Assembly: GCA_020510985.1 (NCBI GenBank)
Contig: CM035843.1
Span: forward strand, 157,251,922 to 157,315,921
Source of the DNA: Pholidichthys leucotaenia
Lineage: Eukaryota
Length of the DNA: 64,000 nt
Direction: 5' to 3'
Positions 2,900-41,220 of the stretch are shown here, piece after piece (within the stretch, counting starts at the first letter, position 1; each line of letters begins with the position of its first letter). Made by a program: the position numbers and the translations under genes. Below the pieces are notes generated by a model, which did no database searches, had not been told where the DNA came from, and was given only the letters and a program-made list of their open reading frames with translations.

Positions 2900-3130
2900 G
2901 TACTATAAAAAAAGTGACAAATTTGCTGGCGGGGGGAGGGTGTGTGGAGGAGTAGCAGATTTGTGTTGGAAAAAGACATAAATTTGTGTGAAAAAAAAAT
3001 TACAAATTTCTAAGAAAGAAGTTGAAAATGCATAAGAAAAAGTAGCAAATCTACCAAAAAAGTCACAGATGTACCAGGAAAAAAGTGAGTTCATGGAAAA
3101 AAAAATATAAAAAAAATCAAACGTGTCCAT
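2900..3130 (+). repeat. A-rich ~22-bp satellite array (monomer approx 'GAGGAAAAAGTCACAAATTTAT'), forward orientation
   Basis: Visible tandem units 'aaaaagacataaatttgtgtgaaaaaaaaattacaaatttctaagaaagaagttgaaaatgcataagaaaaagtagcaaatctacc'. Same family at 3660-4010, 5640-5830, 6380-6720, 8340-8450, 21120-22200, 24170-24560, 59300-60720 and, in reverse orientation, 25400-25700, 26580-26890, 57300-58420. Confidence 0.85.
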
Positions 3131-3635
3131 GTTGATTCCTCTCCACTTCTGTCCTCCTTTCTAGAGTCTAAAGTTGGACATGGGTGAGAAGGGCGGCATG
3201 GCTGAGTGTTCTGCTTCTTCTTCTGATGAGGACATGGGTTTTGGGCTTTTCGATGATGATGTAATAGCGACTCCAGCCAAGCGGTCTTCAGAGAGTGAGC
3301 GTTCCTTACCTTCACCAGTACCACAGAAACACGCTGAGGCCATCTTCCTCCGCAAAAGACCTCGTGCTGCCTTTTATCATCCTCTTTCCAAACTCAGAGG
3401 ACGCATCGGCCGCCCAACGAGACTTTCTACAAAGAAGAAAGATTTGCTTGACAAATGTGAAGATGACGATATGGAGTCTCTTGTCTTGCTTGGTAAAGAC
3501 GTCCTGCCGGAAGTCTCCCCTAGCTTGGACGACTCTGTAAAGGTCTGTGGAGATCAGCTGAGGAAGATCTGCAGTCTCCGTAGGATCATGGAGAGATGCT
3601 GCAGCACTGTTAGCGATTGGTGGTGTCGCTGCTGA
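3130..3635 (+). CDS. Exon-like ORF, family copy 1: conserved acceptor-like block then a 153-aa ORF starting with the acidic 'SSSDEDMGFGLFDDDV' motif (ribosomal P-stalk tail-like); host gene unknown
   Basis: 'ttgattcctctccacttctgtcctcctttctag|AGTCTAAAGTTGGACATGG…'. ORF at 3174-3635. Identical copy at 5894-6355; divergent paralogs at 8508 and 22385. Confidence 0.45.
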
Positions 3636-3659
3636 ATTTGCAGCTGCTTGATGGCACAG

Positions 3660-4010
3660 GCTAGGGCTGGGGGGGTGGGTAGCAGATTTATGAGGAAAAA
3701 GTGACAAATTTACAAGAAAAAGGAGCTAGATTCATGAGAGAAAAAAGTAGCAGATTTAAGAGGAGAAAGTCACAAATTTCTATGGAAAAAGTTAAAATTT
3801 GCCAAGAAAAAATTGACAATTTACCGGAAAAAAGTACCAGATTTTTGAGGAAAAGTCACAAATTCATGAGGAAAAAGTTACAAATTTTTAAGGAAAAAAT
3901 TAGAAATTTACTCGGGGGGGGTGACAAATTTACCAGGAAAAAACTAATTTGAGGCAAAAATTCAAATAGATTCATGAGAGGAAAGTTGCAAATTCAGGAG
4001 TAAAAATTCC
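3660..4010 (+). repeat. ~22-bp satellite array
   Basis: 'gtgacaaatttacaagaaaaaggagctagattcatgagagaaaaaagtagcagatttaagaggagaaagtcacaaatttctatgg…' tandem units. Confidence 0.85.
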
Positions 4011-5625
4011 CAAATGCAGTGCATCCAGAAAGTATTCAGTGCTTCACTTTTCCACATTTTGTTATGTTACAGCCTTATTCCAAAAGGGATTAAATTCATT
4101 TCTTTCCTCAAAATTCTACACACAATACCCCATAATGACAATGTGAAAAAAGTTTTGATTTTTTTCAAATTTATTAAAAATAAAAAAACTAAGAAATCAC
4201 ATGTACATAAGTATTCACAGCCTTTGCTCAGTACTTTGTTGATGCAGCTTCGACAGCAATTACAGCTTCAAGTCTTTTAGAATATGATGCCACAAGTCTG
4301 GCACACCTATCTTTGGGCAGTTTTGCACATTCCTCTTTGCAGCACCTTTCAAACTCCATCAGGTTGGATGGGAAGCGTCGGTGCACAGCCATCTTCAGAT
4401 CTCTCCAGAGATGTTCAATTGGATTCAAGTCTGGGTCTGGCTGGGCCACTCAAGAACATTCACAGAGTTGTCCTGAAGTCACTCCTTTGATATCTTGGCT
4501 GTGTGCTTAGGGTCGTTGTCCTGCTGAAAGATGAACTGTCGCCCCAGTTGAGGTCCAGAGTGCTCTGGAGCAGGTTTTTATCCAGGATGTCTCTGTACAT
4601 TGCTGCATTCATCTTTCCCTCTATCCTGACTTGTCTCCCAGTTCCTGCCGTTGAAAAACATCCTCATAGCATGATGCCGCCACCACCATTGGCCTGGTAA
4701 TGAGCGGTGCCTGGTTTCCTCCAAACATGACGCCTGGCATTCATGCCAAAGAGTTCAATCGTTGTCTCATCAGACCAGAGAATTTTGTTTCTCATGGTCT
4801 GAGAGTCCTTCAGGTGCCTTTTGACAAATTCTAGATGGGCTGCTATGTGCATTTTACTAAGTAGTGACTTGCATCTGGCCACTCTACCATACAGGCCTGA
4901 TTGGTGGATTGCTGCAGAGATGGTTGTCCTTCTGGAAGGTTCTCCTCTGTCCACAGAGGAATGCTGGAGCTCTGACAGAGTGACCATCGGGTTCTTGGTC
5001 AGCTCCCTGACTAAGGTCCTTCTCCCCCGATCGATCAGTTTAGACAGCCGGCCAGCTCTAGGAAGAGTCCTGGTGGTTCTGAACTTCTTCCATTTATGGA
5101 TGATGGAGGCCACTGTGCTCATTGGGACCTTCAAAGCAGCAGAAATTTTTCTGTACCCTTCCCCAGATTTGTGCCTCGAGACAACCCTGTCCTGGAGGTT
5201 GACAGACAGTTCCTTTGACTTCATGCTTGCTTTGTGTTCTGACATGCACTGTCAACTCTGGGACCTTGTATAGACAGGTGTGTACCTTTCCAAATCATGT
5301 CCAATCAACTGAATTTACCACAGGTGGACTCCAATTAAGCTGTAGAAACATCTCAAGGATGATCAGTGGAAACAGGATGCACCTGAGCTCAGTTTTGAGC
5401 TTCATGGCAAAGGCTGTGAATACTTATGTACATGTGATTTCTTAGTTTTTTATTTTTAATAAATTTGCAAATATCTCAAAACTTTTTTCACATTGTCATT
5501 ATGGGGTATTGTGTGTAGAATTTTGAGGAAAGAAATGAATTTAATCCCTTTTGGAATGAGGCTGTAACATAACAAAATTTGAAAAAATGAAGTGTTGTGA
5601 AGACTTTCCGGATGCACTGTACTAT
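4010..5625 (-). mobile_element. Tc1/mariner element (family 1), minus orientation, full-length with both TIRs; transposase about 1018 nt but split by frameshift(s)
   Basis: TIRs at 4010-4230 and 5400-5625 ('cagtgcatccagaaagtattcagtgcttcac' … 'gtgaagactttccggatgcactgtac'). ORFs 4664-5245 (N-terminal 193 aa) and 4228-4449 (C-terminal '[15 protein letters not shown]…'). Confidence 0.85.
4664..5245 (-). pseudogene. Tc1 transposase N-terminal and central region (193 aa); C-terminal DDE part continues in another frame at 4228-4449
   Basis: 'MSEHKASMKSKELSVNLQDRVVSRHKSGEGYRKISAALKVPMSTVASIIHKWKKFRTTRTLPRAG…KILWSDETTIELFGMNARRHVWRKPG'. There is a frame break between 4449 and 4664. Confidence 0.8.
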
Positions 5626-5639
5626 AAAAAAAGTGACAA

Positions 5640-5830
5640 ATTTGCTGGCGGGGGGAGGGGTGTGTGGAGGAGTAGCAGATTTGTGTTGGAAAAAGACACA
5701 AAATTGTGTGAAAAAAAATTTACAAATTTCTAAGAAAGAAGTTGAAAATGCATAAGAAAAAGTAGCAAATCTACCAAAAAAGTCACAGATGTACCAGGAA
5801 AAAAGTGAGTTCATGGAAAAAAAAAAATAA
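5640..5830 (+). repeat. ~22-bp satellite array (duplicate of 2900-3130)
   Basis: Identical to 2920-3110. Confidence 0.85.
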
Positions 5831-5849
5831 AAAAAATCAAACGTGTCCA

Positions 5850-6355
5850 TGTTGATTCCTCTCCACTTCTGTCCTCCTTTCTAGAGTCTAAAGTTGGACA
5901 TGGGTGAGAAGGGCGGCATGGCTGAGTGTTCTGCTTCTTCTTCTGATGAGGACATGGGTTTTGGGCTTTTCGATGATGATGTAATAGCGACTCCAGCCAA
6001 GCGGTCTTCAGAGAGTGAGCGTTCCTTACCTTCACCAGTACCACAGAAACACGCTGAGGCCATCTTCCTCCGCAAAAGACCTCGTGCTGCCTTTTATCAT
6101 CCTCTTTCCAAACTCAGAGGACGCATCGGCCGCCCAACGAGACTTTCTACAAAGAAGAAAGATTTGCTTGACAAATGTGAAGATGACGATATGGAGTCTC
6201 TTGTCTTGCTTGGTAAAGACGTCCTGCCGGAAGTCTCCCCTAGCTTGGACGACTCTGTAAAGGTCTGTGGAGATCAGCTGAGGAAGATCTGCAGTCTCCG
6301 TAGGATCATGGAGAGATGCTGCAGCACTGTTAGCGATTGGTGGTGTCGCTGCTGA
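5850..6355 (+). CDS. Exon-like ORF, family copy 2 (identical to copy 1)
   Basis: ORF at 5894-6355 has the same 153 aa as 3174-3635, with the same upstream polypyrimidine-CTAG block. Confidence 0.45.
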
Positions 6356-6379
6356 ATTTGCAGCTGCTTGATGGCACAG

Positions 6380-6720
6380 GCTAGGGCTGGGGGGGTGGGT
6401 AGCAGATTTATGAGGAAAAAGTGACAAATTTACAAGAAAAAGGAGCTAGATTCATGAGAGAAAAAAGTAGCAGATTTAAGAGGAGAAAGTCACAAATTTC
6501 TATGGAAAAAGTTAAAATTTGCCAAGAAAAAATTGACAATTTACCGGAAAAAAGTACCAGATTTTTGAGGAAAAGTCACAAATTCATGAGGAAAAAGTTA
6601 CAAATTTTTAAGGAAAAAATTAGAAATTTACTCGGGGGGGTGACAAATTTACCAGGAAAAAACTAATTTGAGGCAAAAATTCAGATAGATTCATGAGAGG
6701 AAAAGTTGCAAATTCAGGAG
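6380..6720 (+). repeat. ~22-bp satellite array (duplicate of 3660-4010)
   Basis: Near-identical sequence. Confidence 0.85.
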
Positions 6721-6731
6721 TAAAAATTCCC

Positions 6732-8340
6732 AAATGCAGTGCATCCAGAAAGTATTCAGTGCTTCACTTTTCCACATTTTGTTATGTTACAGCCTTATTC
6801 CAAAAGGGATTAAATTCATTTCTTTCCTCAAAATTCTACACACAATACCCCATAATGACAATGTGAAAAAAGTTTTGATTTTTTTTTCACATTTATTAAA
6901 AATAAAAAAACTAAGAAATCACATGTACATAAGTATTCACAGCCTTTGCTCAGTACTTTGTTGATGCAGCTTCGACAGCAATTACAGCTTCAGGTCTTTT
7001 AGAATATGATGCCACAAGTCTGGCACACCTATCTTTGGGCAGTTTTGCACATTCCTCTTTGCAGCACCTTTCAAACTCCATCAGGTTGGATGGGAAGCGT
7101 CGGTGCACAGCCATCTTCAGATCTCTCCAGAGATGTTCAATTGGATTCAAGTCTGGGTCTGGCTGGGCCACTCAAGAACATTCACAGAGTTGTCCTGAAG
7201 TCACTCCTTTGATATCTTGGCTGTGTGCTTAGGGTCGTTGTCCTGCTGAAAGATGAACTGTCACCCCAGTTGAGGTCCAGAGTGCTCTGGAGCAGGTTTT
7301 TATCCAGGATGTCTCTGTACATTGCTGCATTCATCTTTCCCTCTATCCTGACTTGTCTCCCAGTTCCTGCCGTTGAAAAACATCCTCATAGCATGATGCC
7401 GCCACCACCATTGGCCTGGTAATGAGCGGTGCCTGGTTTCCTCCAAACATGATGCCTGGCATTCATGCCAAAGAGTTCAATCGTTGTCTCATCAGACCAG
7501 AGAATTTTGTTTCTCATGGTCTGAGAGTCCTTCAGGTGCCTTTTGACAAATTCTAGATGGGCTGCTATGTGCATTTTACTAAGTAGTGACTTGCATCTGG
7601 CCACTCTACCATACAGGCCTGATTGGTGGATTGCTGCAGAGATGGTTGTCCTTCTGGAAGGTTCTCCTCTGTCCACAGAGGAATGCTGGAGCTCTGACAG
7701 AGTGACCATCGGGTTCTTGGTCAGCTCCCTGACTAAGGTCCTTCTCCCCCGATCGATCAGTTTAGACAGCCGGCCAGCTCTAGGAAGAGTCCTGGTGGTT
7801 CTGAACTTCTTCCATTTATGGATGATGGAGGCCACTGTGCTCATTGGGACCTTCAAAGCAGCAGAAATTTTTCTGTACCCTTCCCCAGATTTGTGCCTCG
7901 AGACAACCCTGTCCTGGAGGTTGACAGACAGTTCCTTTGACTTCATGCTTGCTTTGTGTTCTGACATGCACTGTCAACTCTGGGACCTTGTATAGACAGG
8001 TGTGTACCTTTCCAAATCATGTCCAATCAACTGAATTTACCACAGGTGGACTCCAATTAAGCTGTAGAAACATCTCAAGGATGATCAGTGGAAACAGGAT
8101 GCACCTGAGCTCAGTTTTGAGCTTCATGGCAAAGGCTGTGAATACTTATGTGCATGTAATTTCTTAGTTTTTTACTTTTAATAAATTTACAAAAATCTCA
8201 AAAAAAAAACTTTTCCTGGCATCATTATGGGGTATTGTGTGTAGAAGTTTGAGGAAAGAAATGAATTTATTCTATTTTGGAATAAGGCTGTAACATAACA
8301 AAATGTGGAAAAAGTGAAGGGCTGTGAATAGTTTCTAGAT
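6732..8340 (-). mobile_element. Tc1/mariner element (family 1), minus orientation; duplicate of 4010-5625 with a more diverged outer TIR
   Basis: ORF at 7386-7967 is identical to 4664-5245 except R to H. TIR at about 8100-8330 is diverged. Confidence 0.85.
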
Positions 8341-8454: not shown

Positions 8455-8760
8455 CCATGGTGATTCCTCTCCACTTCTGTCCTCCTTTCTAGAGTCAAAA
8501 ATTTGACATGATTCAGAAGCGCCACGTGGCTGAGAGTTCTGCTTCTTCTGATGAAGACATGGTCTTTGGATCTCTCAGCGATGATGTAATGGCAATTCCA
8601 GTTGAGCCTTCTTCAGTTAGGGAGCATTTTTCATCTTTTTTTTCCTTTTTTTTATTAATCAAGAAAATTTACATTAAAATCTCAAAAACTCCCATTACAA
8701 GCCAGGCACTCATACAAGCAATGCAAAAACAGTGGCAGCATAAGATAAGGAAAAATAAAT
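8455..8760 (+). CDS. Exon-like ORF, family copy 3 (divergent): 'SSASSDEDMVFGSLSDDVMAIPVEPSSV…' then decays into A/T-rich low complexity
   Basis: Same conserved upstream block 'tggtgattcctctccacttctgtcctcctttctagagtcaaaaatttgacATG'. ORF at 8508-8762. Confidence 0.35.
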
Positions 8761-11639
8761 AAAAGTGGGAATCTTCTTCCCCAATTTATAAAGAAACAAA
8801 TAAGTATAAATAGCAATCTAAACAAACATGTCACATTCTTGCAAGATTTGACATGTTTTTATAGCTTTCTGGTTGCTTGAACCAATAATAATTTTAACAT
8901 AAGTATTAAAATCTAGTGTAAACATTTTAAATTAAGGTTTACTGCTAAATTTACATTTATGAAAAAAAAATTACTATAAAAAAGGAGTAAATTCAGATTA
9001 TAGAAAAAAAATCTCTCTGTGTACCAATATTATCTGTATAACCAAATATGACATTTTCCAAACAAAGTTATAATGTAAACTAATTCTGTTGTCTGTATGT
9101 TGGCACAGATCTGAGCAGAAAACTTTCACATCAACACTTTTCCAAACAAATGGCAGAAGTCGTCTGGATATAGACCACAACATGAATACAGAATATCAGC
9201 ATCACAGTTCAATCCTGTTAAATACACTTTGGTCAGATAATATCTATGAATTATTTTAAGTGATATTTCTTTAACTTTTTTTCTTAAAATAAACTTGTTA
9301 AACAAAGCCCAGATTTGATACTCCAGAAATAAACTGCAGGGGGATTAGATGTGACCTCCCTTTGAAACAAGGCTTTAGCATGTTTATTTGTTCTTAAATT
9401 GGGAGGAAAACTAACTTTTCCACCACAGTATGAGAAGCTTCCAGACAGGGTTCTCTATCTGATAAATGTGATCTGGTTCTGAAAAGCCTGCTTAGCCCGT
9501 CAGGGATCGCATTCTTAACAAGATGGAATTCTCTAACTGAGCAGGAAAAGTTGAAGGTAGACACAAATTCTTCACACAACATACCATTTAAATTAAATAA
9601 TTGTCTAACTGTCAACATCTTATTATCAAACCAAGTTTTATAAAATAAGGATTTATTTTTATAAGTTATATTGTGGTTATTTCAAATAAAATAGTAATGG
9701 GAGAAAGTTTGTGTTTGTTATGAGAGACCAGGATAATAACAACTGTTTGTGAAATTGGGATAGTTTGACAGGAAGGTTTTCTAGTTTGTATGGACACAAT
9801 AACAGGAATTTTAAACCACCCACTTGAGAAAAAATATGTTCAGGAATAGGGGTGGGCGATATGGCCTAAAAATGATATTACGATATTTCTGTGAATTTTC
9901 ACGATAATAATATTCTTCACAATATTAAGGAATACAGTTTCTTCTTTTAAATTTATAAAGGACAGTTTCACAGGCCAGCATTAATTATGTTCAACATATT
10001 CAGTAAAACCAAAAACTCTTACTTCTCCAGTTTATAAAGAGCAGTTTAGAATGTGTTTGAAACTTTTTTGGATTCTGTATCAAATAATACCAGAAAATAT
10101 TATAAACCACCACATCTTAAGCGCACTGAGGGGTGGACTGGGACAAAGATTCAGGCCGGGAATTTGACTTCATCCTAGGCCACCCTGTTGTTGGAAACCA
10201 GAAACCACCACAGTTTTAGTAGGTTAATATTTTAAAATAACAGGTATCAAACTAGTGATAAATGTAATTATAGCCTTCAGCTTGGAGGAAAATTATAAAT
10301 TTGGATTTTAATAGTCAACTGATCTATTGATTATTAAAACAACTGATTAATCTTAATTTTAATCTGGTGCTGCTTCTGATTTCTTCACCTTTTCTGAATA
10401 AAAACACAAGGTCAGAGACTTTAGGTAAAAAGTTACAATTGTGCATGAAAAAGGTCACAAATTTGTCACCAAAAACATTCAAAATTTTAAAAAAATGTAC
10501 CTTCATGAAAAGATGTTTAAAAAAATGAGAAAATAAAACAAATTTAGGAGAGAACGGTAACAAGCAGATGACTAAAGTTGGTACTGCAGACTACATATAG
10601 CCTGTAGTTTTGAAAATTATAAAGTCTTTTCTTAAAACATCTGAATAGTCCTGAAAACATAAATGTAAGAGCAGTTTAGTTATGGTTAATGCAACCTATT
10701 TATTACATTAAAAACTTTAACCCTAAACTACAGTATAAGCAGCTGCAGCACCCTTGTATAACCACAGACACTCATTCACCACATTACTTCTGTCTTCACC
10801 TCATTTCTATGCTCTGGGGCATGAGGGGGTTTTGGTCATTTTAACATATTAAATTAATTTAGTATGTTATTTCACCGGGTCAGGAAGAGGGTCTAAATAA
10901 AACAGGAAGGAAGTGGGCTTATTTAAAAGTATTATTTCATCATTTGGCCTACCTGTCTGCCGTTTCCCCAACCAAGACACTTCTGCAGGTAAATGACCGC
11001 CGCGTCAGACCTCCCATCTCTCTCTCTTTCTCCGTTTACCCACGTTAGAAATCTCCGTTGCACAGACAGCTCCTGGGGCTGTTAACAGATTTTTATTTTT
11101 TTTTTCATTTGCTTGGCTGAATGAATCAATCTGGAGCAGCCACAAGGGAATGCAAATAAACCTCTGGACACTTCGGAGTCCGGACGTCAACAGCACTTCT
11201 TCAGGGTGAAGTAAAGCTTTTCACTGAAGCCGTGTTATTGACGTGCGGAAAAAAATGCGGGCAGATTATCCACATCACTCCACCACATTTTTTTAAGAAG
11301 GCAGCAGTCTGAAACGGCCTTAAAACTAAATAACTTCCTCACAACTAGACGCAGACGTTCCAAGCACAGAGCACCGCTTCTCACGCCATGTTTGGTTTGT
11401 CGTTTCTATGGTAATGCGTAACTTCCGTTGGCAGCATAACGGACCCCAAATATTGCGATATTCATTTTCACACCAGTATCAGAAATTATACCGGTATTAT
11501 CGTGAATGATACAACATGGCACACCCCAATCAGGGATACTATTCCAGATTGACGCAGAGTTCTGCTGGAACCATTTTATCCAGTTAATTTTAAAGGTATT
11601 ATTAAGAGTCTCAAAATCTGAAATATTTAACCCAGGTGT

Positions 11640-11820
11640 GACTGTGAGAGTGAATGGTTGTCTGTCTCTCTGTGTTGGCCCTGCGATGGACTGGCGATCT
11701 GTCCAGGGTGAACCCTGCCTCTCGCCCTAAGATGCTGGGATAGGCTCCAGCCCCCCCGCAACCCGAAAAGGATTAAGCGAAAGAAGATGAATGAGTGAAC
11801 GAATGAATATTGTAGCTGTT
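11640..11820 (+). mobile_element. SINE 3' fragment (same family as 62110-62345; tail '…ccccgcaacccgaaaaggattaagcg')
   Basis: Forward-orientation match to the reverse complement of 1975-2110 and 36420-36560. Confidence 0.7.
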
Positions 11821-12099
11821 TATTATCACAGATTTTTTTAATGAGTTTTATTTTTCCACAAAAAAGTAAATAGTATTGTGTCTGTTGATTTACTAATGTT
11901 CTTATTTACATGGATGGAGAAAGTTCTATAAATCAGCCTAGAAAATCCTTCTGTTTCTACTGGTTAAATCTTTTTTTTGTTTTTTTGTTTTTTCAATAAG
12001 TGGCTGAAAATGAGCCTCACATCTTACATCTTCATTTTTGATCACATTAACTCCCAGGTAGGTGACAGAATCTTTCACTGGAATGTTGAAGCACAATTA

Positions 12100-14650
12100 G
12101 AGGCTTAAAGAGACAGCAGCTCACATCTGTGGACGTTTCAAGTGAGTCCTGGGGCTTTAGAAAGCAGAGGAATAGTATTTAGAGCCAGTGGGATTTCTGA
12201 AGCATCTTTTAAAAACAGAGTAGCGTCATCAGCAACCTGACTAATCAAAATGTTGTAGTTTGCAAAAGAGATCCCTTTTAAAGGGCTAGATTTAATAGAG
12301 TCGGCAGTCAGCTGTGCACATAACAGGAAGAGGTAAGGGGAGACTTGACAACCTGGTCTCACCTCCCGTTCCCCTCAGATCTTTGTGAGGTTCCAGACTT
12401 CAGTTTGATAGAGCTGTGAGCGTTTTTATAAAGTGCTTTGGTGACATTACAGAATAAAGGTCCAAAACCAAATTTATTAAGAGCAGAAAAAATAAAATGA
12501 TGCTCAATAGTGTCAATAGCTTTATAAAAATCTAAAAATAAAATATAACTGTCACTTGTGATACAATGAGAGTACTCAGTAAGATCTAATATTGTCAGAA
12601 ATATGTCGACCCTTCATGAAGCCTGTCTGGGGTTCATCAGTTATAAACGGTATAACTGTTCTCATTCTGTTTACAAATATTTGGGCCAGTATTTTATAAT
12701 CTGTATTAAGAAGACAGATGGGGCGCCAATTATCAATTTGCAGTTTCTTTTTTTGGGTTTAGGGATTAGTGTAATTAGGCCCTGTGAGAGGGTGGCAGGT
12801 AAACGTTCAGTACATGGCATATACAATTTATGTAAAACAGGAGTCAGAGCATCAGAAAATACCTGATAAACTCGGCACTTCAGCCATCCACACCTGGAGA
12901 CTGTTCAGAAGACAAATTATTGCCTTCCTTAATGCTGTTCATAAAAGAGTGAGCAGATATTTCTGAACAATTTGATCTATACAGGTTACCATAGAAGGTA
13001 GAACAAAAAATTTTAATTAATTTGGGATCTTCTGTAATGACATCAATTTGTATTAAGTTTATGAATAGAATTAAATTGAGCCTGCTGTTTTTCCAAGCGG
13101 AAAAAAATGAGCTGTACTTTGCTCCCCCTCCTCTAGCCACTGTCTTCTAGACCTTACTATGCTCCTCTGGCCTTAGTAATGTAAAAATCATTGAGTCTCA
13201 TTTAACACATCCAGTTCTTCTTTTTCATTCACAGAAATATCATTGGGAAGCAAATCACACAAGTGTTCAGTTCTATCAATCAGAGTTTGTTCCTGCATTT
13301 TTCTCTCTTTTACTAAATTACTGCAGTAATATCTAAGCAATCTGGAAGACTCAAACTTAAAAAGATCCCAATAAACAATAAAATTATTTTCCACAGTGGC
13401 CTTATGAAAAATATACAAAATGATTTTTTTTCCATATGAGAAATAAGAGCCTTATGCACCAAAACGGAATGATTAAGTTTCCAGTGAGCTTTCAGCCTAA
13501 AGTCAGGGGTGGATGACCTGATCTGAATAAATACTGCTCTGTGCTCTGTTAACGGGGATAAAAATCAAACTTAACATCGTTGTTCTTCAGTGAGTCAGAA
13601 ATCAACCAATAATCCAATCTAGACATACACATTTTGGATTTGGTCATCCAAGTGTAATTTCTCACATCAGAAAAATGTTCCCTCCACCCATCAATTAAAT
13701 TAAATTTTTGGATTAAATTAATCAGTAGTTGGGTGGGAAACTTCTAGCTGGCCACCTATTCAGGTTTTCATCTAGAACCACATTAAAGTCACCACCGACC
13801 ACTATAAGCAGGTCAGGGTATTTAGAAAACCAGAAGTCAAGCAGACGTTCCAGAGTATCAAGTGAGCCATCATTGTTGCATTTATGTGGATAATGAACTA
13901 TAAAATGTCCATTTACACTACCGTTCAAAAGTTTGGGGTCACTTAGAAATTTCCTTATTTTTGAAAGAAAAGCACTTTTTTTCAATGAAGATAACTTTAA
14001 ACTAATCAGAAATACACTCTATACATTGCTAATGTGGTAAATGACTATTCTAGCTGCAAATGTCTGGTTTTTGGTGCAATATCTATATAGGTGTATAGAG
14101 GCCCATTTCCAGCAACTATCACTCCAGTGTTCTAATGGTACAGTGTGTTTGCTCATTGCGTCAGAAGGCTAATGGATGATTAGAAAACCCTTGTGCAATC
14201 ATGTTAGGTCTGCAATGCTGTAATTGCTGCAAATGGAGGATTCTTTGACGAAAGCAAAGTTTGAAGGAAAAAATTATTATTTCAAATACAAATCATTATT
14301 TCTAACCTTGTCAATGTCTTGACTATATTTTCTATTCATTTTATAACTCATGGTGGTAAATAAGTGTGACTTTTCATGGAAAATACAAAATAATTGTCTG
14401 GGTGCCCCCAAACTTTTGAACGGTAGTGTACATCGGAGTCAACAGACAAAATGTCTCCTTTAAAATTAAATGGCAGAACACCTGCAGAATAACTGGAACC
14501 GTGTGACAACCAAAGTTCGTTCCCCCACTGAGATTTCCAGATTTTAACATCCTCAGGTAAAGAATGTGCTTCTTGAATGGAAAAAAGTATGTATTTTTGC
14601 TGCTTTAAAAACAAAAATAAGGTCTTAGGTTTAACGGCGTCTCTGAGGCT
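12100..14650 (-). mobile_element. Degenerate LINE (APE-type endonuclease + RT remnants), minus orientation, carrying a nested MITE
   Basis: Minus-strand ORFs: endonuclease N-terminus at 14348-14614 ('LFSIQEAHSLPEDV'), 'VVGGDFNVVLDENLN' at 13722-13985, RT 'SPYLF…ISQVADDATLFL' at 12138-12362. Confidence 0.6.
13921..14423. mobile_element. Tc1/mariner-like MITE (~500 bp) with ~22-bp TIRs and TA target-site duplication, inserted in the LINE endonuclease region
   Basis: 'ta|CCGTTCAAAAGTTTGGGGTCAC … GGTGCCCCCAAACTTTTGAACGG|ta'. No coding capacity. Confidence 0.7.
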
Positions 14651-15717
14651 CCTGGCATTTAAAGAAAAAAGTGATAGGCAGTCTGGTAAACAGATGTGTC
14701 TAAATGTTTGATCTTCATCTCGTCAAGAAAAAAGGAGAAAAGTATTAAAAAAAAAAAAGTAATACTGACCCAGTCCCCTCAGTCCTTATCCCTCTACAGC
14801 TCTCCTCGTAGCTCTTTTCCATCTACGAAGCCTCGAGCCCTGATGGAAAAAAGCTTGTCTGCCCTCCTTCCTGGCCGCTTCAATCCACAGCCATAACTTC
14901 TCTCGAGCCAACTCATCAGCAGTGGTCAGGTCCTCAGGCGCTATGCTGGACAGTAGTCACTTGTCTCAGCTTGTTTCCAAACCAAATTCCTTATAGATCT
15001 ATTAGAGAACCTTAAAATAGTCACTCTTGGTTCTTTATCCTCTCGTATACAACCGAGTCAATGAGACACATCTATGTGACATGAAATATCGTCTGAGGCC
15101 TCTGGAGCAACAGCCTGGCACCTCTGAACAGCCCTCATTTTAATATTTTCATCCATCTCTTGAATGTCGTGTTCTCAGGTTTGCGCTCCACTTCATTCAG
15201 TCTCATCTCCAACTTCTCAATCTTCTTTTCATGCTCAGCACAAGTTGCAGAGACCTTTAGGACATCAGCTTTAAGAGTTTTACCTCCTCAAAGGCATATT
15301 CAAGAGATTTTTTAATGTCTTCAATGCAAGTTCTGTTTGCACTGATTTTTAATGCCAAATCATCGGCTCAGTCATTAACTAACTGCAGTAGTTTCCAGAG
15401 TGATGTCTTCTTTTGAACATTTGCCTGGAGGTTTTATCAGGGAGTCGCCTTCAGAGTCTACAGTTTCCAGGTTGGAGGTGTTTTTTGCTTACCAGACTGA
15501 CAGTAGCTGTGCTCTCTCTCTATAGAAGCCGTATCTGTTTGTGTTAAAGGCACACCAAATTCCATGTCTTCATAGAGTTGTTTCTCCTTGCTCTTCAAAG
15601 CAGATTTTTGTTTCTTTTCCTGAGTGAAATCTGCCGATGTAGCCATTGGCCTAGCGCAAAAACTTGTGCAACGTTCTGCTGAAAAGCACATTAAGAGACT
15701 CTCAGCTCCACAAACCA

Positions 15718-16343
15718 CTGGGGGGGGGGGGGGGTGTGCTCAAAATACAAAAGGTGGTAGAGCACTGATAAATAAACAGTATGGGATGAAAAAATTTCAA
15801 CTTCACTTCGTGACTGAAACATTTGTCACCACGGGCGCCATCTTGGCCTCCTCCTTTTTCATCCGTTTTTCATCTTCTGCTCCACCTCCACCACCAGAAC
15901 CACAGAAACACGCTGAGGCCATCTTCGACAAAGGATCTCCCAAAATCGTGCACTTGTGGCCGACACACATTGTGGGCTCACGTTGCCACAGAGACAGGAC
16001 TGCATGTGTATTGTGGGGTGTCACGTCTGCAAGGACAGAGGACTCGAATCTGCAGAAGATAACAAGGAAGTGTGAGATTTGTCTCTTTGTCCCACAGAAG
16101 ATGCCCCGGAGAGAATTCCGGTTCATCAGGAAATGAGAGACAATAGGTGAAGCTTCAAAGGGATGCTTTGTAACTGTATGTTTACTGAAGACACCATGTG
16201 ACTTGAATCCTGATGCTGGAAACGTATAAAAGGGTGTTGAGATATGATTCTTTCTCTTTCCTGCTTTGAGAATGCTAGAAGCTGTGTTCTATCAAATAAA
16301 GCTGGTTTATGACTAAACTCAGCCTCGTCATTTGAGCACATCT
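15718..16343 (+). repeat. 5' LTR (starts TG…, ends …CA; contains TATA box and AATAAA)
   Basis: 15794-16343 is identical to 20494-21043. 'tataaaag' at 16225-16232; 'aataaa' at 16295-16300. Confidence 0.8.
16225..16232 (+). promoter_or_regulatory. LTR TATA box (tataaaag); second copy at 20925-20932
   Basis: Canonical TATA in the U3/R region about 70 bp upstream of AATAAA. Confidence 0.5.
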
Positions 16344-16369
16344 TCTACACTGGTGACCTACGACGGAAA

Positions 16370-17134
16370 ATGAGCAGACAGAATTCTCCCGAGCAGGGCT
16401 CGGCGGAAGCCATCCTGATGGCCGCCTCCACGATCCGGCTGCCCGATTTCTGGCAGCACAGCCCGCGCTCATGGTTTAGTGCAGTCGAGGCGCAGTTCAA
16501 CCTCCGGAGAATCTCCAACGACGACACAAGATTCTACCACATGGTAGCGAAGCTGGACAGCGACACGGTCCAGAGAGTGGAGGATCTGGTTAACCATCCA
16601 CCAGACAGCGACAAGTACAGCGCATTGAAAGACGCGCTGATCAGCCATTTCACCCCCTCAGTCCAACAACGAGCAGAGGGGCTCCTGGCGCTGACGGAGG
16701 CAGAAAACGATAGACCTGCGGACCTGATGGTGAAGATGCTGCAGCTCAAAGCCTCTGAGGACGGCGAATTCATTTTCACCCACCTTTTCCTCCGAACCCT
16801 ACCACCAGCAGTGAGAGTGGCCCTGGCAGAGTTGCCCCGATTGGCCAGGCGAGACTACCATGGGTTGAGTAAGGAGGCGCAGCGGTTGGTCGACGCCCAC
16901 AAGCGGAACGCGGTTTCGGCCGCGGCGGCCAGTCCGGGAACGGCGTCCGGAGACAGCGCAGGTCCAGCGGCTGCGGCGCCAGACGCACCAACGGCGGCGG
17001 CGATGGGAGCCAGACGACGCAGAGCGGAGGACGGCCCGTGCTTCTACCACCGCCGTTTTGCAGAGAGAGCGCACAGGTGCGTCCCACCGTGCAACTTTAA
17101 GCGCCAGGGAAACGCCAAGACCGAGGGCCGGTAG
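16370..17134 (+). CDS. BEL/Pao gag (254 aa)
   Basis: 'MSRQNSPEQG…LPDFWQHSPRSWFSAVEAQFNLRRISNDDTRFYHMVAKLDSDTVQRV…' has DUF1759-like retrotransposon gag architecture. TAG stop at 17132-17134. Confidence 0.75.
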   Translation: MSRQNSPEQGSAEAILMAASTIRLPDFWQHSPRSWFSAVEAQFNLRRISNDDTRFYHMVAKLDSDTVQRVEDLVNHPPDSDKYSALKDALISHFTPSVQQRAEGLLALTEAENDRPADLMVKMLQLKASEDGEFIFTHLFLRTLPPAVRVALAELPRLARRDYHGLSKEAQRLVDAHKRNAVSAAAASPGTASGDSAGPAAAAPDAPTAAAMGARRRRAEDGPCFYHRRFAERAHRCVPPCNFKRQGNAKTEGR

Positions 17135-20100
17135 CAGCCGCGACCCTCGGCAACGAGAACAGGCTGCTTTACCTGACGGATGCACGCTCGGGGAAACAGT
17201 TCCTCGTGGACACGGGCTCTCAGCTGAGCTTCATCACACCCACCTACGCGGAACGGCTGTCGCCTTCTAAAGCCCCCTGGGTGTCAGTGTCAGCAGCGAA
17301 CGGCTCCACGATTAAAACGTTCGGTGAGAGGACCATGCTTCTGTCCTTACAGGGCCGTTCATTTGAGTGGACATTTATTGTAGCAGCAGTCAGTTTCAAC
17401 ATGTTAGGGGCTGATTTTTTGTGCTCACATGGTTTATTGGTTGACCTTGCTAATAGACGTCTGGTTAATGCACTGTCCTTTCATTCTATTCCCTGCACAG
17501 CTCGGGTGGCCCCGCCAACTGCACATGCCAGCGTCTCAGCTGCGGGTGGTAAGTTTCACACTTTGCTTGCTCAGTTTCCAGCACTCACAGTCCCCACGTT
17601 TTCGGCAACGGTGGCCAAACATGGGGTAGAACATTTCATAACAACCACAGGCCCTCCCGTTTTTGCAAAAGCTCGGCGCTTGGACCCAGCTAAACTGGCC
17701 ATCGCGCGCGAGGAGTTCACTAATCTGGAAAAACTGGGCATTGTTAGACGCTCCAAGAGCCCTTGGGCTTCGCCGTTACACATGGTCCCAAAGGCTGACG
17801 GCTCGTGGCGTCCTTGCGGCGATTTCCACAGGTTGAACAACGTTTCAGCTCATGACCGCTACCCGATTCCGCACATTCAGGATTTTTCTGTTCATTTGGC
17901 AGGGGCGCGCATTTTTTCTAAAATAGACTTGGTGCGCGGCTACCACCAGGTTCCAGTGCGCGCGCAGGATGTACCCAAAACAGCGGTCATAACTCCTTTC
18001 GGCCTTTTTGAGTTTTTGCGCATGCCTTTTGGCCTCAAGGGGGCCGCGCAGACTTTCCAACGCATGATGGATGCAGTTTTACGCGACCTGCCTTTCGTGT
18101 TCGTTTATTTGGACGATATTTTGGTAGCCAGCGCGTCCGAAGGCGAACATGAAAAACACCTCACAGCAGTTTTCCGGAGGCTGGCAGAGCACGGGTTAAT
18201 AGTTAACCCAGCGAAGTGCCAGTTTGGGGTGGCGCAGATTGATTTTTTGGGACATCGCGTTTCGGCAGAAGGAGCGGTTCCCCTTCCAAATAAAGTGCGT
18301 GCCATAACGGATTTTCCGCAACCTCAAACGGTCAAGGCGCTTCAGGAGTTTCTAGGGATGGTTAATTTTTACAACCGATTCCTCCCAAGCGCAGCACGAC
18401 TCATGCAGCCATTGTACACCGCGTTAAAAAAACAAAAGCCCGCAAATAAAGTTGAATGGTCTCCGGAGCGGGAGCGCGCTTTTGCCCAGGTCAAATCAGC
18501 CCTGGCAAACGCAGTTTTATTAGCGCACCCAGTTCCAACGGCCCGCATGGCGCTCACCACTGACGCTTCCGATGTAGCGGTGGGGGCGGTAGTTGAACAG
18601 TTTGTGGCAGGTACCTGGCAACCCCTCGCGTTTTTCAGCAGGACTTTGTGCGATAGTGAACGGAAATACAGCGCGTTTGACAGGGAGCTTGTGGCCCTAC
18701 ACTTGGCCATCCGTCATTTTCAGTTCTGGTTAGAGGGGCGACGTTTCACCGCTTTTGTGGATCATAAACCGCTAACGTTTGCGATGGCCAAAATTTCAGA
18801 ACCCTGGTCAGGCCGGCAACAAAGGCAACTAGCCGCAATATCGGAGTTCACTACTGATATTCAGCATGTCGCGGGTAAACACAATGTTGTGGCAGACTGC
18901 CTCTCGCGTGCAGTAGCACCGCCAAGCCCCATAGGGGCAGACTCTGTAGCCATGGCCGCGGGCCCGGGCAGCGACGCGGGAGCGCGCGCAGCCCCGGTCT
19001 GTGTTGGGTTAGATTATGCAGCCATGGCTGCGGAGCAGGTTAACGACGCGGACGTGCGTGCGCTCCAGTCTGGACCAACAGGGTTAAGGCTGGAGCACAG
19101 GGTGCAACAAAACGGTATGCCCCCACTAATCTGCGATGTCTCCACGGGATGGCCCCGCCCCGTGGTGCCAGCCGCGTGGCGTCGCCGCGTTTTTGACTTG
19201 GTCCATTCTCTCGCACACCCGGGGGTGCGCGCATCGATCAAATTGGTGGGGGAGAAATTTGTTTGGCCCGGGTTGCGCAAACAGGTCAAGGAATGGGCGG
19301 CAGCCTGCGTAGCGTGTCAGCGAGCCAAAATACACAGACACACTAAGGCCCCGTTAGAACCTTTTCACATCCCCGCTAAGCGTTTTGATCATGTGCATGT
19401 TGATTTGGTCGGTCCGCTTCCGTTATCACACGGGCACACACATCTTTTGACGATGGTAGATCGCACCACGCGCTGGCCAGAGGCGATTCCTCTGACATCA
19501 GCCACAGCGGAAGAAGTTGCGCGAGCATTTTTAGCAGCGTGGGTTGCGCATTTTGGTGTACCGTCGGACATAACGTCCTACAGGGGTCCCCAATTTATTT
19601 CCGAGCTATGGTCATCGATGGCCCGCAGCTTGGGGGTGAAGATTCATCGCACCACCGCGTATAACCCCCAGGCTAATGGTTTATGCGAACGCTTTCATAG
19701 GTCATTGAAGGCAGCCCTCAGAGCGTCGCTAACGGATACAAATTGGGTGGACAAACTTCCATGGGTTTTATTGGGGTTGCGTTCTGCACCTAAGGAAGAT
19801 TTGCATGCTTCCCCGGCTGAATTAGTTTTTGCACAACCGCTGCGTTTGCCGGGGGAATTTCTTCCCGATAATCCCGCACCTAATGGCCCCCCTGCTCAGC
19901 CGTGGCAGAGCGGCTCAGGAGCAAACACGCTCCCTGGCCCAGTCCATCACAGTTTCCCACACGTTTTTGTGCCAAAGGCTTTAAAAAATGCAGAGTTTGT
20001 TTTTGTTAAACATGATGCTCAGCGTCCAAGTTTGTGGCCGTTTTACGACGGACCGTTTCGAGTGCTGGAGACCGGGCAGAAGCATTTTCTGCTAGATTTA

Positions 20101-20343
20101 GGGGGCAGAAGGGAGCTGATTTGCATAAACAGGCTCAAACCCGCTTTTGTTCTGGCTGACGAGGAGGTGCAGCTCGCGAGGCCCCCCCGCCGTGGCAGGC
20201 CGCCGAGAGGACATTCTCCAAAGTCTTCACAGAAAGGTGCTAACAGTTTTAATCCACAGCTGCAGAGAGATGTTGCAGGTGCAGCCAAACCAGGTTGCAG
20301 CAGATTCGGCAGAAGGTTAAAACCTAGGCAGTTGGTGGATTGA
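17101..20343 (+). CDS. BEL/Pao pol polyprotein (protease-RT-RNaseH-integrase). The ORF-track start at 17206 is a GTG; the true reading frame begins in the gag overlap
   Basis: DTG protease motif at about 17209; 'FVYLDDILVAS' RT; integrase zinc finger 'HSLAHPGV…CVACQRAK'; DDE core; C-terminus '…KHFLLDLGGRRELICINRLKPAFVLADEE…'. Confidence 0.8.
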   Translation, partial: APGKRQDRGPVAAATLGNENRLLYLTDARSGKQFLVDTGSQLSFITPTYAERLSPSKAPWVSVSAANGSTIKTFGERTMLLSLQGRSFEWTFIVAAVSFNMLGADFLCSHGLLVDLANRRLVNALSFHSIPCTARVAPPTAHASVSAAGGKFHTLLAQFPALTVPTFSATVAKHGVEHFITTTGPPVFAKARRLDPAKLAIAREEFTNLEKLGIVRRSKSPWASPLHMVPKADGSWRPCGDFHRLNNVSAHDRYPIPHIQDFSVHLAGARIFSKIDLVRGYHQVPVRAQDVPKTAVITPFGLFEFLRMPFGLKGAAQTFQRMMDAVLRDLPFVFVYLDDILVASASEGEHEKHLTAVFRRLAEHGLIVNPAKCQFGVAQIDFLGHRVSAEGAVPLPNKVRAITDFPQPQTVKALQEFLGMVNFYNRFLPSAARLMQPLYTALKKQKPANKVEWSPERERAFAQVKSALANAVLLAHPVPTARMALTTDASDVAVGAVVEQFVAGTWQPLAFFSRTLCDSERKYSAFDRELVALHLAIRHFQFWLEGRRFTAFVDHKPLTFAMAKISEPWSGRQQRQLAAISEFTTDIQHVAGKHNVVADCLSRAVAPPSPIGADSVAMAAGPGSDAGARAAPVCVGLDYAAMAAEQVNDADVRALQSGPTGLRLEHRVQQNGMPPLICDVSTGWPRPVVPAAWRRRVFDLVHSLAHPGVRASIKLVGEKFVWPGLRKQVKEWAAACVACQRAKIHRHTKAPLEPFHIPAKRFDHVHVDLVGPLPLSHGHTHLLTMVDRTTRWPEAIPLTSATAEEVARAFLAAWVAHFGVPSDITSYRGPQFISELWSSMARSLGVKIHRTTAYNPQANGLCERFHRSLKAALRASLTDTNWVDKLPWVLLGLRSAPKEDLHASPAELVFAQPLRLPGEFLPDNPAPNGPPAQPWQSGSGANTLPGPVHHSFPHVFVPKALKNAEFVFVKHDAQRPSLWPFYDGPFRVLETGQKHFLLDLGGRRELICINRLKPAFVLADEEVQLARPPRRGRPPRGHSPKSSQKGANSFNPQLQRDVAGAAKPGCSRFGRRLKPRQLVD
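17107..17113 (+). promoter_or_regulatory. Candidate -1 programmed ribosomal frameshift slippery heptamer G GGA AAC (X XXY YYZ) at the gag/pol overlap
   Basis: Gag reads GGA AAC. The pol frame (-1) opens at 17101 right after a TAA and reads continuously through 'GKRQDRGPVAAATLGNENRLLYLTDARSGKQFLVDTGS' into the 1045-aa ORF. Confidence 0.6.
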
Positions 20344-20406
20344 TTAGCAATGTATGGAGTGCTTTGTGTTTTTCTTTTTTTTTTTTGTTATGCCATGCAG
20401 GTTTTG

Positions 20407-37647: not shown

Positions 37648-40047
37648 TACAGTGGGGTAAAAAAGTATTTAGTCAGCCACCAATTGTGCCGGTTCTCCCA
37701 CTTAAAAGATGAGAGAGGTCTCCAATTTTCATCATAGGTATACCTCAACTATGAGAGACAAAATAAGAAAAAAAAAATCCAGAAAATCACATTGAAGGAT
37801 TTTTAATGAATTAATTGGTAAATTCCTTGGTAAAATAAGTATTTGGTCAATAACAAAAGTTCATCTCAGTACTTTGTTATATACCCTTTGTTGGCAATGA
37901 CAGAGGTCAAACGTTTTCTGTAAGTTTTCACAAGGTTTTCACACACTGTTGCTGGTATTTTGGCCCATTCCTCCATGCAGATCTCCTCTAGAGCAGTGAT
38001 GTTTTGGGGCTGTCACTGGGCAACACAGACTTTCAACTCCCTCCAAAGATTTTCTATGGGGTTGAGATCTGGAGACTGGCTCGGCCACTCCAGGACCTTG
38101 AAATGCTTCTTACGAAGCCACTCCTTTGTTGCCCGGGTGGTGTGTTTAGGATCATTGTCATGCTGAAAGACCCAGCCACGTTTCATCTTCAGTGCCCTTG
38201 CTGGTAGATGGAGGTTTTCACTCAAAATCTCACGATACATGGCCCCATTCAGAATCAGAATCAGAATCAGATTTATTGCCATTGTTCATGTAGTACACAA
38301 ACTAGGAATTTGTCTCGATGCCATGCTGCAACATTAAAAACATGATGAGAAAAAGAGATAAACTAAAAAACTAAAGGACTGAAAACATGCAATAAGTGTA
38401 GAAAAATAAGTAATAATAAGTAATAATGATAATAATAATAATAACAATACTAGTAATAATGAGTAGTACTAGTCAAGGCAGTTTTAAAAAATTAGCAAGT
38501 AGCAGATAATGTGAAGTACCACATAGTGCAGTCGATAATGCAACAGAAAACAGTGATGAATGACGTGAGTCTGGTTGAGCTGCTGTACATAGTGCACGAG
38601 AGTCAAAAAGTCATTTAATGTTCAGCAGTCTGATGGCAGAGGGGAAAAAGCTGTTCATGTGCCGGGAGGTTTTAGTCCGAATGGACCGAAGTCTTCTACC
38701 TGAGGGGAGGGGAGCAAACAGTACGTGACCAGGATGTGAAGGATCGGCTATGATCCGGCCAGCACGCCTCCGGGTCCTGGAGATGTACAGGTCCTGGAGA
38801 GATGGGAGCTCGCAGCCTATCACCTTCTCAGCAGTGCGCACGACGCGCTGCAGCCTTAGTCTGTCCCTGGCAGTGGCTCCTGCATACCACACAGTTATGG
38901 AGGAGGTGAGGATGGACTCGATGATGGCCGTGTAGAACTGCACTAACATCTTGGTGGGTAGCTTGAGCTTCCTCAGCTGCCGCAGAAAGAACATCCTCTG
39001 CTGGGCCTTTTTGATGGGCCCAGCAGAGGGCCCATCATCATCAGGGCCCATCAGGGCCATTCATTCTTTCCTTTACACGGATCAGTCATCCTGGTCCCTT
39101 TGGAGAAAAACAGCCCCAAAGCATGATGTTTGCACCCCCATGCTTCACAGTAGGCATGGTGTTCTTTCTCCTCCAAACACGACAAGTTGAGTTTTTACCA
39201 AAAAGTTCCATTTTGGTTTGATCTGACCATATGACATTCTCCCAGTACTCTTCTGGATCATCCAAATGCTCTCTCGCAAACTTCAGACGGGCCTGGACAT
39301 GTACTGGCTTAAGCAGGGGGACACGTCTGGCACTGCAGGATTTGAGTCCCTGGTGGCGTAGTGTGTTTCTGATGTAGCCTTTGTTACTTTGGTCCCAGCT
39401 CTCTGCAGGGCATTCACTAGGCCCCCCCATGTGGTTCTGGGATTTTTGCTCACCATTCTCGTGATAATTTTGACCCCACGGGGTGAGATCTTGCGTGGAG
39501 CCCCAGATCGAGGGAGATTATCAGTGGTCTTGTTTGTCTTCCATTTTCTAATAATTGCTCCCACAGTTGATTTCTTCACACCAAGCTGCTTACCTATTGC
39601 AGATTCAGTCTTCCCAGCCTGGTGCAGGTCTACAATTTTGTTTCTGGTGTCCTTTGACAGCTCTTTGGTCTTGGCCATAGTGGAGTTTGGAGTCTGACTG
39701 TTTGAGGTTGTGGACAGGTGTCTTTTATACTGATAACGAGTTCAAACAGGTGCCATTAATACAGGTAACGAGTGGAGGACAGAGGAGCCTCTTAAAGAAG
39801 AAGTTACAGGTCTGTGAGAGCCAGAAATCTTGCTTGTTTGTAGGTGACCAAATATTTATTTTACTGAGGAATTCACCAATTAATTCATTAAAAATCCTTC
39901 AATGTGATTTTCTGGATTTTTTTTTTTCTCATTTTGTCTCTCATAGTTGAGGTATACCTATGATGAAAATTGGAGACCTCTCTCATCTTTTAAGTGGGAG
40001 AACTTGCACAATTGGTGGTTGACTAAATACTTTTTTGCCCCACTGTA
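37648..40047 (-). mobile_element. Tc1/mariner element (family 2), minus orientation, disrupted by an ~800-bp LINE 3' fragment insertion (38259-39050) with about 10-bp target-site duplication 'ggccccattca / gggccattca'
   Basis: TIR 'tacagtggggtaaaaaagtatttagtcagccacc' at 37648; end 'ccccactgta' at 40047. Transposase N-terminus at 39283-39678 (-). The inserted ORF at 38611-39060 (-) is a LINE ORF2 C-terminus '…HPGHVLFAPLPSGRRLRSIRTKTSRHMNSFFPSAIRLLN' with a (CTGATT)n tail. Confidence 0.8.
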
Positions 40048-40899: not shown

Positions 40900-41220
40900 T
40901 TTTTTACTCTTTCCTTATAACAATTTACATTTTTGACAGCTTCCTCCCACAAGCTGTCAGGATGCTGAACAGCTGACCCGGAATCTCACATACACACTAC
41001 TGCACCTATGGACATTTTGTATATTATAGTTAGTTATTCTTTTTCCCCAAGTATGTCTCAGGGATGTGTGAATGGATGGGGGGGTGGGAGCTATGTGGGA
41101 GTGTGTCTTAATCATGCTGCTTCTTATATGGATGCCGAGAGAAACGCAATTTCATCTTGCCTGCACTACAGTTGTATGTACAGCAATATGACAATAAAGT
41201 TTGATTTGATTTGATTTTTG
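40900..41220 (+). mobile_element. LINE 3'-terminal fragment (ORF2 last residues '…SFLPQAVRMLNS*' plus 3' UTR with (GATTT)n tail)
   Basis: Homology to the C-termini at 47700-47793 and 38611-38660. Confidence 0.55.

Follow-up and report, generated by a model that had tools for sequence, protein, structure and literature searches.

Why should a stretch of about 55 bp from the coding region of a host exon family occur at both ends of a retrotransposon? In the window, by which we mean the whole stretch of 64,000 nucleotides analysed here, the sequence-only reading had assigned such a block to the U3 of a BEL/Pao LTR. It had proposed that either the element captured a fragment of the host family or the family derived part of its exon from an LTR-like sequence. 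We have examined how good the match is, what kind of element is involved, where its LTRs begin and what lies on either side of them.

The match itself is genuine, with an identity far beyond chance, although its coordinates had to be shifted. The block lies at 15873-15926 (5') and 20573-20626 (3'), about 12 nt lower than first reported (15885-15938 and 20585-20638). The 35-mer CACCAGAACCACAGAAACACGCTGAGGCCATCTTC is present at 15892-15926 and 20592-20626 and recurs with one mismatch (34/35 identical) at 3313-3347 and 6033-6067, in exon copies 1 and 2. In 100 dinucleotide shuffles the 35-mer found no chance match (expected by chance, 0), and BLAST within the window gives an E-value of about 1e-10 for the block against the exon copies. 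The upstream part of the block, the 25-mer TCTTCTGCTCCACCTCCACCACCAG (15873-15897 and 20573-20597), differs from copy 4 (22523-22547) at 2 positions. Overall, the block and copy 4 share 80% identity over 55 bp, the copy 4 match lying at 22523-22572, about 7 nt below the 22530-22580 given previously. In shuffle tests, the core 15873-15926 was significant against copy 1 (z=19.6) and against copy 4 (z=11.1); the similarity of the neighbouring repeat parts 15787-15872 and 15927-15954 to the exon copies was not. A generic Pro-codon microsatellite, raised at the outset as a trivial source of the match, does not account for it, the block being no low-complexity repeat within this window.

Three further similarities were considered and set aside. 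A soft alignment to copy 4 plausibly extended the homology upstream to about 15834, but shuffles gave the extension no significance, and that stretch is now assigned to the 5' end of a LINE. A satellite origin of 15784-15833, from the 22-bp satellite flanking the exons, scored no better than shuffles. A 17-nt similarity between the end of the block and the last 17 nt of the LTR was judged a chance seed extension.

The exon family has some traits of its own. Copies 1 and 2 show no difference over 521 bp and lie, together with the 22-bp satellite, in a 2720-bp tandem duplication (2931-8000), which also holds an ORF for a Tc1-like transposase (minus strand, 4664-5245 and 7386-7967). Both copies encode SDEDMGFGLFD (3228-3260 and 5948-5980), which agrees in 11/11 residues with the conserved tail found at the C-terminus of the ribosomal stalk proteins P0/P1/P2, and weaker versions occur in copy 3 near 8541-8580 and in copy 4 near 22409-22445. 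All 24 PDB matches of a 30-aa query containing this motif (24/24) were P0/P1/P2 C-termini, with E-values of just 0.16-1.6; in the exon family the motif has an internal position instead of a C-terminal one. Neither exon copy 1 nor the ORF running through the repeat gave homologues in protein searches, and an exhaustive profile search with copy 4 in a collection of 1.8 billion proteins gave low-complexity repeat matches only. The copy 4 ORF (22385-23827, 480 aa) includes tandem repeats of about 27 bp (22843-23617) coding for FSFGAAPQS-like units, reminiscent of FG-nucleoporin repeats. Near 22737 it has a possible splice donor, CCA|GTGAAAG, aligned with the putative donors of copies 1 and 3; therefore the long ORF of copy 4 may not be all exon. 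Elsewhere in the window, an ORF of 223 aa (58518-59189, plus strand) has no introns, carries ARF/ARL-type GTPase motifs and may be a retrogene.

The coding part of the element consists of two open reading frames:

16370-17134, plus strand: gag ORF (Pfam DUF7041, E 6.7e-22)
17206-20343, plus strand: pol ORF, 1045 aa, with protease (DTGS), RT, RNase H and integrase (Pfam RVT_1, RT_RNaseH_2, RT_RNaseH, Integrase_H2C2, rve)

In the pol product, DTGS is N-terminal and the Pfam scan places RVT_1 at 194-352, RT_RNaseH_2 at 418-515, Integrase_H2C2 at 654-709 and rve at 726-821. This is the protease-RT-RNase H-integrase order of Ty3/Gypsy elements (Metaviridae), with a Gypsy-type RNase H and the H2C2 zinc domain of the integrase. 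Identity of pol to its database matches ranges from 44 to 71% among the matches listed; the closest named among them are fish proteins annotated as 'Gypsy retrotransposon integrase-like protein 1' or K02A2.6-like (62-71%). The BEL/Pao families Peptidase_A17, DUF1758/DUF1759 and DUF5641 were absent from the Pfam scan of gag and pol. Because of these domains and closest database proteins, the element is, on the protein evidence, Ty3/Gypsy, and the BEL/Pao label has to be dropped. No exact match was obtained for gag, for pol or for the LTR ORF, no second copy of the element exists in the window, and the block, scanned as DNA against metagenome and prokaryote genome collections, had no match there. 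A second, unrelated integrase fragment (61314-61748, plus strand) is about 30% identical to the C-terminal region of the Gypsy integrase of database relatives.

Next, we defined the limits of the LTRs. The relevant features are as follows:

15951-15954, plus strand: left target-site duplication CACT
15955-16349, plus strand: canonical 5' LTR, 395 bp, TGTGG...TCTACA, starting with the same 48 nt as follow the polypurine tract at 20436
inside the 5' LTR, plus strand: TATAAAAG near 16226 and AATAAA near 16295
16351-16366, plus strand: primer-binding site TGGTGACCTACGACGG (direct reading; relatives have (T)TGGTGACCCCG at the equivalent place)
20422-20435, plus strand: polypurine tract (PPT), G11 (20422-20432) then TAG (direct reading; the G-rich tract of relatives is at the same place)
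20436-20483, plus strand: first 48 nt of the original 3' LTR (A1), 48/48 identical to 20655-20702 and 15955-16002
20655-21049, plus strand: full LTR copy at the 3' end, identical (395/395) to 15955-16349
21050-21053, plus strand: right target-site duplication CACT, equal to the left copy

Two related fish elements, with pol identity of about 66-68%, served for comparison: one from Entelurus (L001, 39078-43311) and one from Synchiropus (L002, 2805-7179). Both have LTRs of 175 bp which start with TGTGG right after a G-rich PPT and end in CACA, followed by the primer-binding site (T)TGGTGACC; their 4-bp target-site duplications are GTGT (Entelurus) and ATCC (Synchiropus). In the element studied here, the segment directly following the PPT, TGTGGCCGAC...GGACTG (20436-20483), recurs without change at 15955 and at 20655, and for this reason the LTR begins at these two positions. 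Its start is thus placed, on the two relatives and the target-site duplications, at TGTGG, and its length is 395 bp. So delimited, the element displays the structural hallmarks of Ty3/Gypsy: a TG...CA pair of LTRs, primer-binding site, PPT and a 4-bp duplication, CACT, flanking 15955-21049 exactly. As a separate observation on the Entelurus aequoreus sequence (CM067113.1), the public gene model for P0009 extends over 40 kb (3001-42936 of L001), the retroelement it encodes occupying only 39078-43311; this model looks like an annotation artefact joining distant pieces.

Since the LTR starts at 15955 and CACT is present on both sides of the element, the 5' block belongs to the left flank and not to the LTR. 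Only the 3' block sits between LTR sequences. The location in U3 claimed at first therefore fails for the 5' block and holds for the 3' block just in so far as the latter is within a composite 3' end. The 5' fragment is found upstream of the LTR start, contains the left target-site duplication and has no LTR start before it, which is not the arrangement of a block captured in a mobile U3.

If the 5' block is flanking DNA, to what does it belong? Upon inspection of the sequences to the left and right, a third member of the exon family was recognized, divided into three pieces by two insertions:

8493-8637, plus strand: copy 3 piece 1, 78% identical to copy 1 over 164 bp, the homology ending at a T-run
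8627-8637 (left) and 15866-15876 (right), plus strand: target-site duplication TTTTTCATCTT of the LINE, 11/11 identical, at both homology breakpoints
8638-15865, minus strand: degenerate LINE (non-LTR retrotransposon) inside copy 3, recognized by Pfam domains and the 11-bp duplication
8638-8653, minus strand: poly(A) tail of the LINE, a T6CCT8 run on the plus strand
about 12758-11941, minus strand: LINE RT (Pfam RVT_1)
about 14722-13552, minus strand: LINE ORF2 endonuclease (Pfam Exo_endo_phos)
about 15647-14789, minus strand: LINE ORF1-like region, a coiled-coil frame starting MATSADF...
15865-15648, minus strand: LINE 5' UTR, including C15 (15720-15734)
15866-15954, plus strand: copy 3 piece 2, 89 nt, holding the block 15873-15926, 34/35 identical to copy 1, colinear when 8637 is joined to 15877
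21054-21148, plus strand: copy 3 piece 3, with an open frame over the empty-site join and a 13-mer colinear with copy 1

The LINE carries an APE-type endonuclease and an RT on one strand; it ends in a poly(A) tail and is bounded on either side by its target-site duplication. In concatenated minus-strand pieces, RVT_1 scored well above its cut-off (E 9.5e-23), and Exo_endo_phos reached E 2.4e-4 with 21.3 bits, under the curated cut-off of 24.5 bits. The ORFs are broken by stops and frameshifts (minus strand, about 15650-9400). Shuffle tests detected no significant similarity of 15787-15865 to the exon copies, which fits our assignment of this stretch to the 5' end of the antisense LINE. The first nucleotides of the LINE are CGGATGAAAAAGGAGGAGGCCAAGATGGCGCCCG (15830-15865, minus strand), and their core GCCAAGATGGCG may resemble the YY1 box that starts the 5' UTR of human L1. 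It was also considered whether G15, TGTG and 48 nt in the 5' flank are a PPT and LTR-start remnant of an upstream or tandem Gypsy element; this was rejected, there being no Gypsy coding remnant in 9-15.7 kb, where the region consists of LINE 5' UTR and ORF1 on the other strand.

A conserved acceptor tract (8461-8492) precedes piece 1, which ends with the left 11-bp duplication of the LINE; piece 2 ends with the left Gypsy duplication, the 4 nt CACT. With both insertions taken out (joins 8637/15877 and 15954/21054), copies 1 and 4 align colinearly to copy 3 over both joins, and copy 3 forms a single open frame, reading ...EPSSVREHFSSSAPPPPPEPQKHAEAIFDKGSPKIVHFPNP... At the LINE join, GGAGCATTTTTCATCTT|CTGCTCCA---CCTCCACCACCAG of copy 3 stands against GGAGTTCTTTCTCTTCTGCTCCACCTCCTCCACCACCAG of copy 4, and at the Gypsy join the frame stays open as ...EPSSVREHFSSSAPPPPPEPQKHAEAIFDKGSPKIVH|FPNPLLL... 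The 13-mer CTTTCCAAAC(C/T)CA bridges the Gypsy empty site and is colinear with copy 1 at 3383-3395; taken alone it is weak, 50 of 300 shuffles doing as well. Piece 3 appears to end at a possible donor, GAG|GTGAAA. The empty sites predicted for copy 3 would read ...GGGAGCATTTTTCATCTTCTGCTCC... and ...AATCGTGCACTTTCCAAACCC... Because of the target-site duplications, and because removal of both insertions restores colinearity and an open frame, we regard the 5' block as the middle piece (15866-15954) of exon copy 3, split by a LINE and a Gypsy element; jointly with a later copying of flank plus LTR to the 3' end, described below, this is very probably correct. Copy 3 is accordingly a three-piece pseudo-exon.

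Copies 1 and 3 show 34/35 identity in the block (3313-3347 versus 15892-15926), yet 78% over 164 bp upstream. Candidate causes of this contrast are a local constraint acting on ...PQKHAEAIF and sequence conversion among the paralogues.

The opposite derivation, in which an LTR-like sequence supplied the exon family with the block part of its exon, has nothing in its favour beyond the shared block itself. It conflicts with the position of the block outside the canonical LTR, with its sharing by descent among copies 1, 3 and 4 (80-97% identity), and with the 175-bp LTRs of the two relatives, which have no block-like segment. We give it next to no credence, and this half of the original proposal is contradicted. 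The block does link a mobile element with the exon family, as had been stated, and the direction, if there is one, is from exon to element.

How, then, did the block come to be at the 3' end? There, the following segments were distinguished in addition to the 48-nt LTR start:

20484-20490, plus strand: rearrangement junction TGTTGAC (GGGATGA in the 5' copy), with 3 mismatches in 7 nt, then 1 in 564
20487-20654, plus strand: duplicated left flank, 168 bp, holding the block 20573-20626, part of a 564-bp direct repeat
20487-20565, plus strand: LINE 5' end part of the duplicated flank, 79 nt
20566-20654, plus strand: exon copy 3 piece 2 part of the duplicated flank, 89 nt, ending in CACT

The order at this end is PPT, 48 nt of LTR, the irregular junction of 7 nt, 79 nt of LINE, 89 nt of exon, full LTR and CACT; the sequence where the 48 nt meet the flank is GGACTGTGTTGACAAAATTTC. 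From the PPT on, the 48 nt, flank and LTR make up a composite 3' LTR of 614 bp. The direct repeat (15787-16350 and 20487-21050) is 564 bp long and 99.8% identical, with a single difference at 15790. Within it, 15787-15954 equals 20487-20654 but for that 1 difference and is contiguous with the identical LTRs, a layout expected of conversion between flank and LTR or of ectopic recombination. Such repeats are error-prone in assembly, and the 3' flank copy (20484-20654) might in principle be an artefact, the real locus having a plain 395-bp 3' LTR. The two copies differ at 15790, though, and the 7 nt unique to the junction are unusual for a simple collapse or duplication error, which makes an artefact very unlikely.

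The 5' copy is the one in its native context, because its left 79 nt continue into the LINE body, whose matching 11-bp duplication lies 7 kb away beside piece 1. On the same grounds of contiguity, we take it that the 5' copy is the source of the duplicated flank.

These relations bear directly on whether an ancestor of the element captured the block in a genuine U3, for example through a template switch of the RT while it copied a read-in transcript. The element studied here would then be a transposed descendant with real LTRs of 564-614 bp. The block is indeed present at both ends, in one orientation, within a 99.8% identical repeat. PPT, 48 nt, insert and full LTR might be the outcome of one non-homologous template switch on read-in RNA, and a G-run with TGTG precedes both repeats at equal spacing. 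Against these points, the 5' repeat has no copy of the 48-nt LTR start upstream of the block. The insert ends with CACT before TGTGG, and CACT also follows the 3' LTR, which fits an insert drawn from the flank at this very locus; a chance match would occur 1 time in 256. Finally, the left 79 nt of the insert run into the LINE body, the other end of which has the 11-bp duplication beside piece 1. Ancestral capture is consequently highly improbable. The claim that the LTR captured a host fragment does not hold at the 5' end and survives at the 3' end only as a local, apparently single-locus rearrangement that carries LINE sequence too.

We therefore return to nested insertion and propose the following history. 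An antisense LINE would have entered copy 3 (8638-15865), producing the 11-bp target-site duplication. The Ty3/Gypsy element would then have inserted 78 bp further into the exon (15955-21049), with the 4-bp duplication CACT. A later event, presumably at the DNA level, would have placed a second copy of the 5' LTR, along with the 168 bp to its left, at the 3' end, the copied stretch joining 48 nt into the original 3' LTR. This event could have been ectopic repair of a double-strand break, or an unequal exchange followed by LTR-LTR deletion. The outcome would be a 564-bp direct repeat that mimics an LTR carrying the block in a 'U3'. In our judgement, the doubled block is very likely explained by a LINE and a Gypsy element nested in a paralogous exon, followed by copying of flank plus LTR, with ectopic repair or recombination as the most likely way of duplicating the flank.

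Candidate mechanisms of the duplication step would include break repair running into the flank, unequal exchange with LTR-LTR deletion, and a cDNA route. One misfit should be pointed out: simple synthesis-dependent repair with tail clipping would have left the 3' copy with the 48 nt of the LINE, whereas those present there are the first 48 nt of the LTR. In each copy, the duplicated flank is preceded at a distance of 51-52 nt by a G-run with TGTG (G15 of the LINE 5' UTR at 15720-15734, G11 of the PPT at 20422-20432), and just five G runs of at least 10 exist on the plus strand of the window. CACT is also found directly before the G15 run (15716-15719). The repair event was perhaps anchored by this microhomology, which has the same spacing at both places. 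As such an anchor, G-run plus TGTG may explain the equal spacing and the retained LTR 48 nt, but only partially. True homology of the 48 nt after G15 and TGTG to the first 48 nt of the LTR was considered and dropped. Their global alignment beats 1999 of 2000 shuffles; the local score of the same pair is tied with unrelated places in the window, similarity beyond G-run plus TGTG is weak, and the case was treated as microhomology.

The cDNA route starts from the same nested insertions. Read-in RNA, from the host gene or antisense to the LINE, would yield an aberrant cDNA (PPT, 48 nt, flank, LTR) which converts the resident element. It accounts for the LTR's 48 nt kept at the 3' copy and for the untouched 5' flank, and mis-annealing of a G-run primer on C15 could give the equal spacing. 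Conversion mediated by cDNA is known for yeast Ty elements, which counts in its favour. It needs more steps than a DNA-level event, however, and the messy 7-nt junction is equally compatible with end-joining. We hold this route to be unlikely and keep to the DNA-level event.

A related possibility concerns the future of the element. Since gag and pol are open and the PPT abuts the TGTGG start, progeny would inherit the 614-bp composite at both ends. The composite 3' LTR might accordingly be read as an early acquisition of host sequence, 89 nt of exon and 79 nt of LINE set between the PPT-proximal LTR start and the full LTR, a reading to which we attach little weight. If it were true, such copies could give rise to transcripts or small RNAs that cross-react with the exon family (copies 1 and 2 match at 34/35), and if progeny with the composite LTR exist, they would illustrate cleanly one way in which a U3 can capture host sequence. 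The block has no known function in the element.

In our interpretation, the doubled block is the product of ordinary transposon-insertion history and is no new link between gene and transposon. The apparent link results from an LTR boundary mis-drawn over a doubly interrupted exon paralogue, and the value of the analysis is mainly corrective. For annotation it means a three-piece pseudo-exon (copy 3), a Ty3/Gypsy element with a 395-bp LTR, and a LINE at 8638-15865. More generally, LTR callers based on direct repeats can take in flanking host DNA where duplications of flank plus LTR arise, and LTR identity (100% here) would then date the rearrangement, not the insertion.

Compared with known systems, the element closely resembles the fish 'Gypsy retrotransposon integrase-like protein 1' or K02A2.6-like elements. 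It shares with them the DUF7041 gag and a pol with RVT_1, RT_RNaseH_2, Integrase_H2C2 and rve, identity of 62-71% among those listed, the TGTGG start, the TGGTGACC primer-binding site and a 4-bp duplication, and differs in its LTR of 395 bp from the 175 bp of the two relatives examined. The locus as a whole conforms to nested insertions splitting a gene or exon paralogue. It has a LINE with poly(A) and an 11-bp duplication, as well as an LTR element with TG...CA, primer-binding site, PPT and a 4-bp duplication, and removal of both restores a colinear open exon; nothing essential is unusual except that just 89 nt of exon are left between the insertions, abutting the LTR.

Capture or transduction of host fragments by LTR retrotransposons and retroviruses is known, for example from maize Bs1 and from oncogene transduction. 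As in those cases, progeny could inherit the exon fragment of the 3' composite as U3, with the PPT-proximal LTR start on one side of it and a full LTR on the other. Unlike in them, the 5' copy is undisturbed host flank, the fragment includes LINE sequence, and there is no sign of mobilisation.

A parallel to the duplication step comes from plants. Gene conversion within LTR retrotransposons and, rarely, between element-internal and flanking DNA has been reported in rice and maize, according to PMC5751070 (citing Vitte and Panaud 2003 and Ma et al. 2005). In the conversions outlined there, as here, a stretch of flank recurs inside the element beside the other LTR, and the LTRs are homogenised (395/395 in our case). 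As against these rice and maize cases, flank plus the whole LTR are involved here, meeting the 3' LTR 48 nt from its start through a junction without homology, by a proposed mechanism and in a teleost-like genome.
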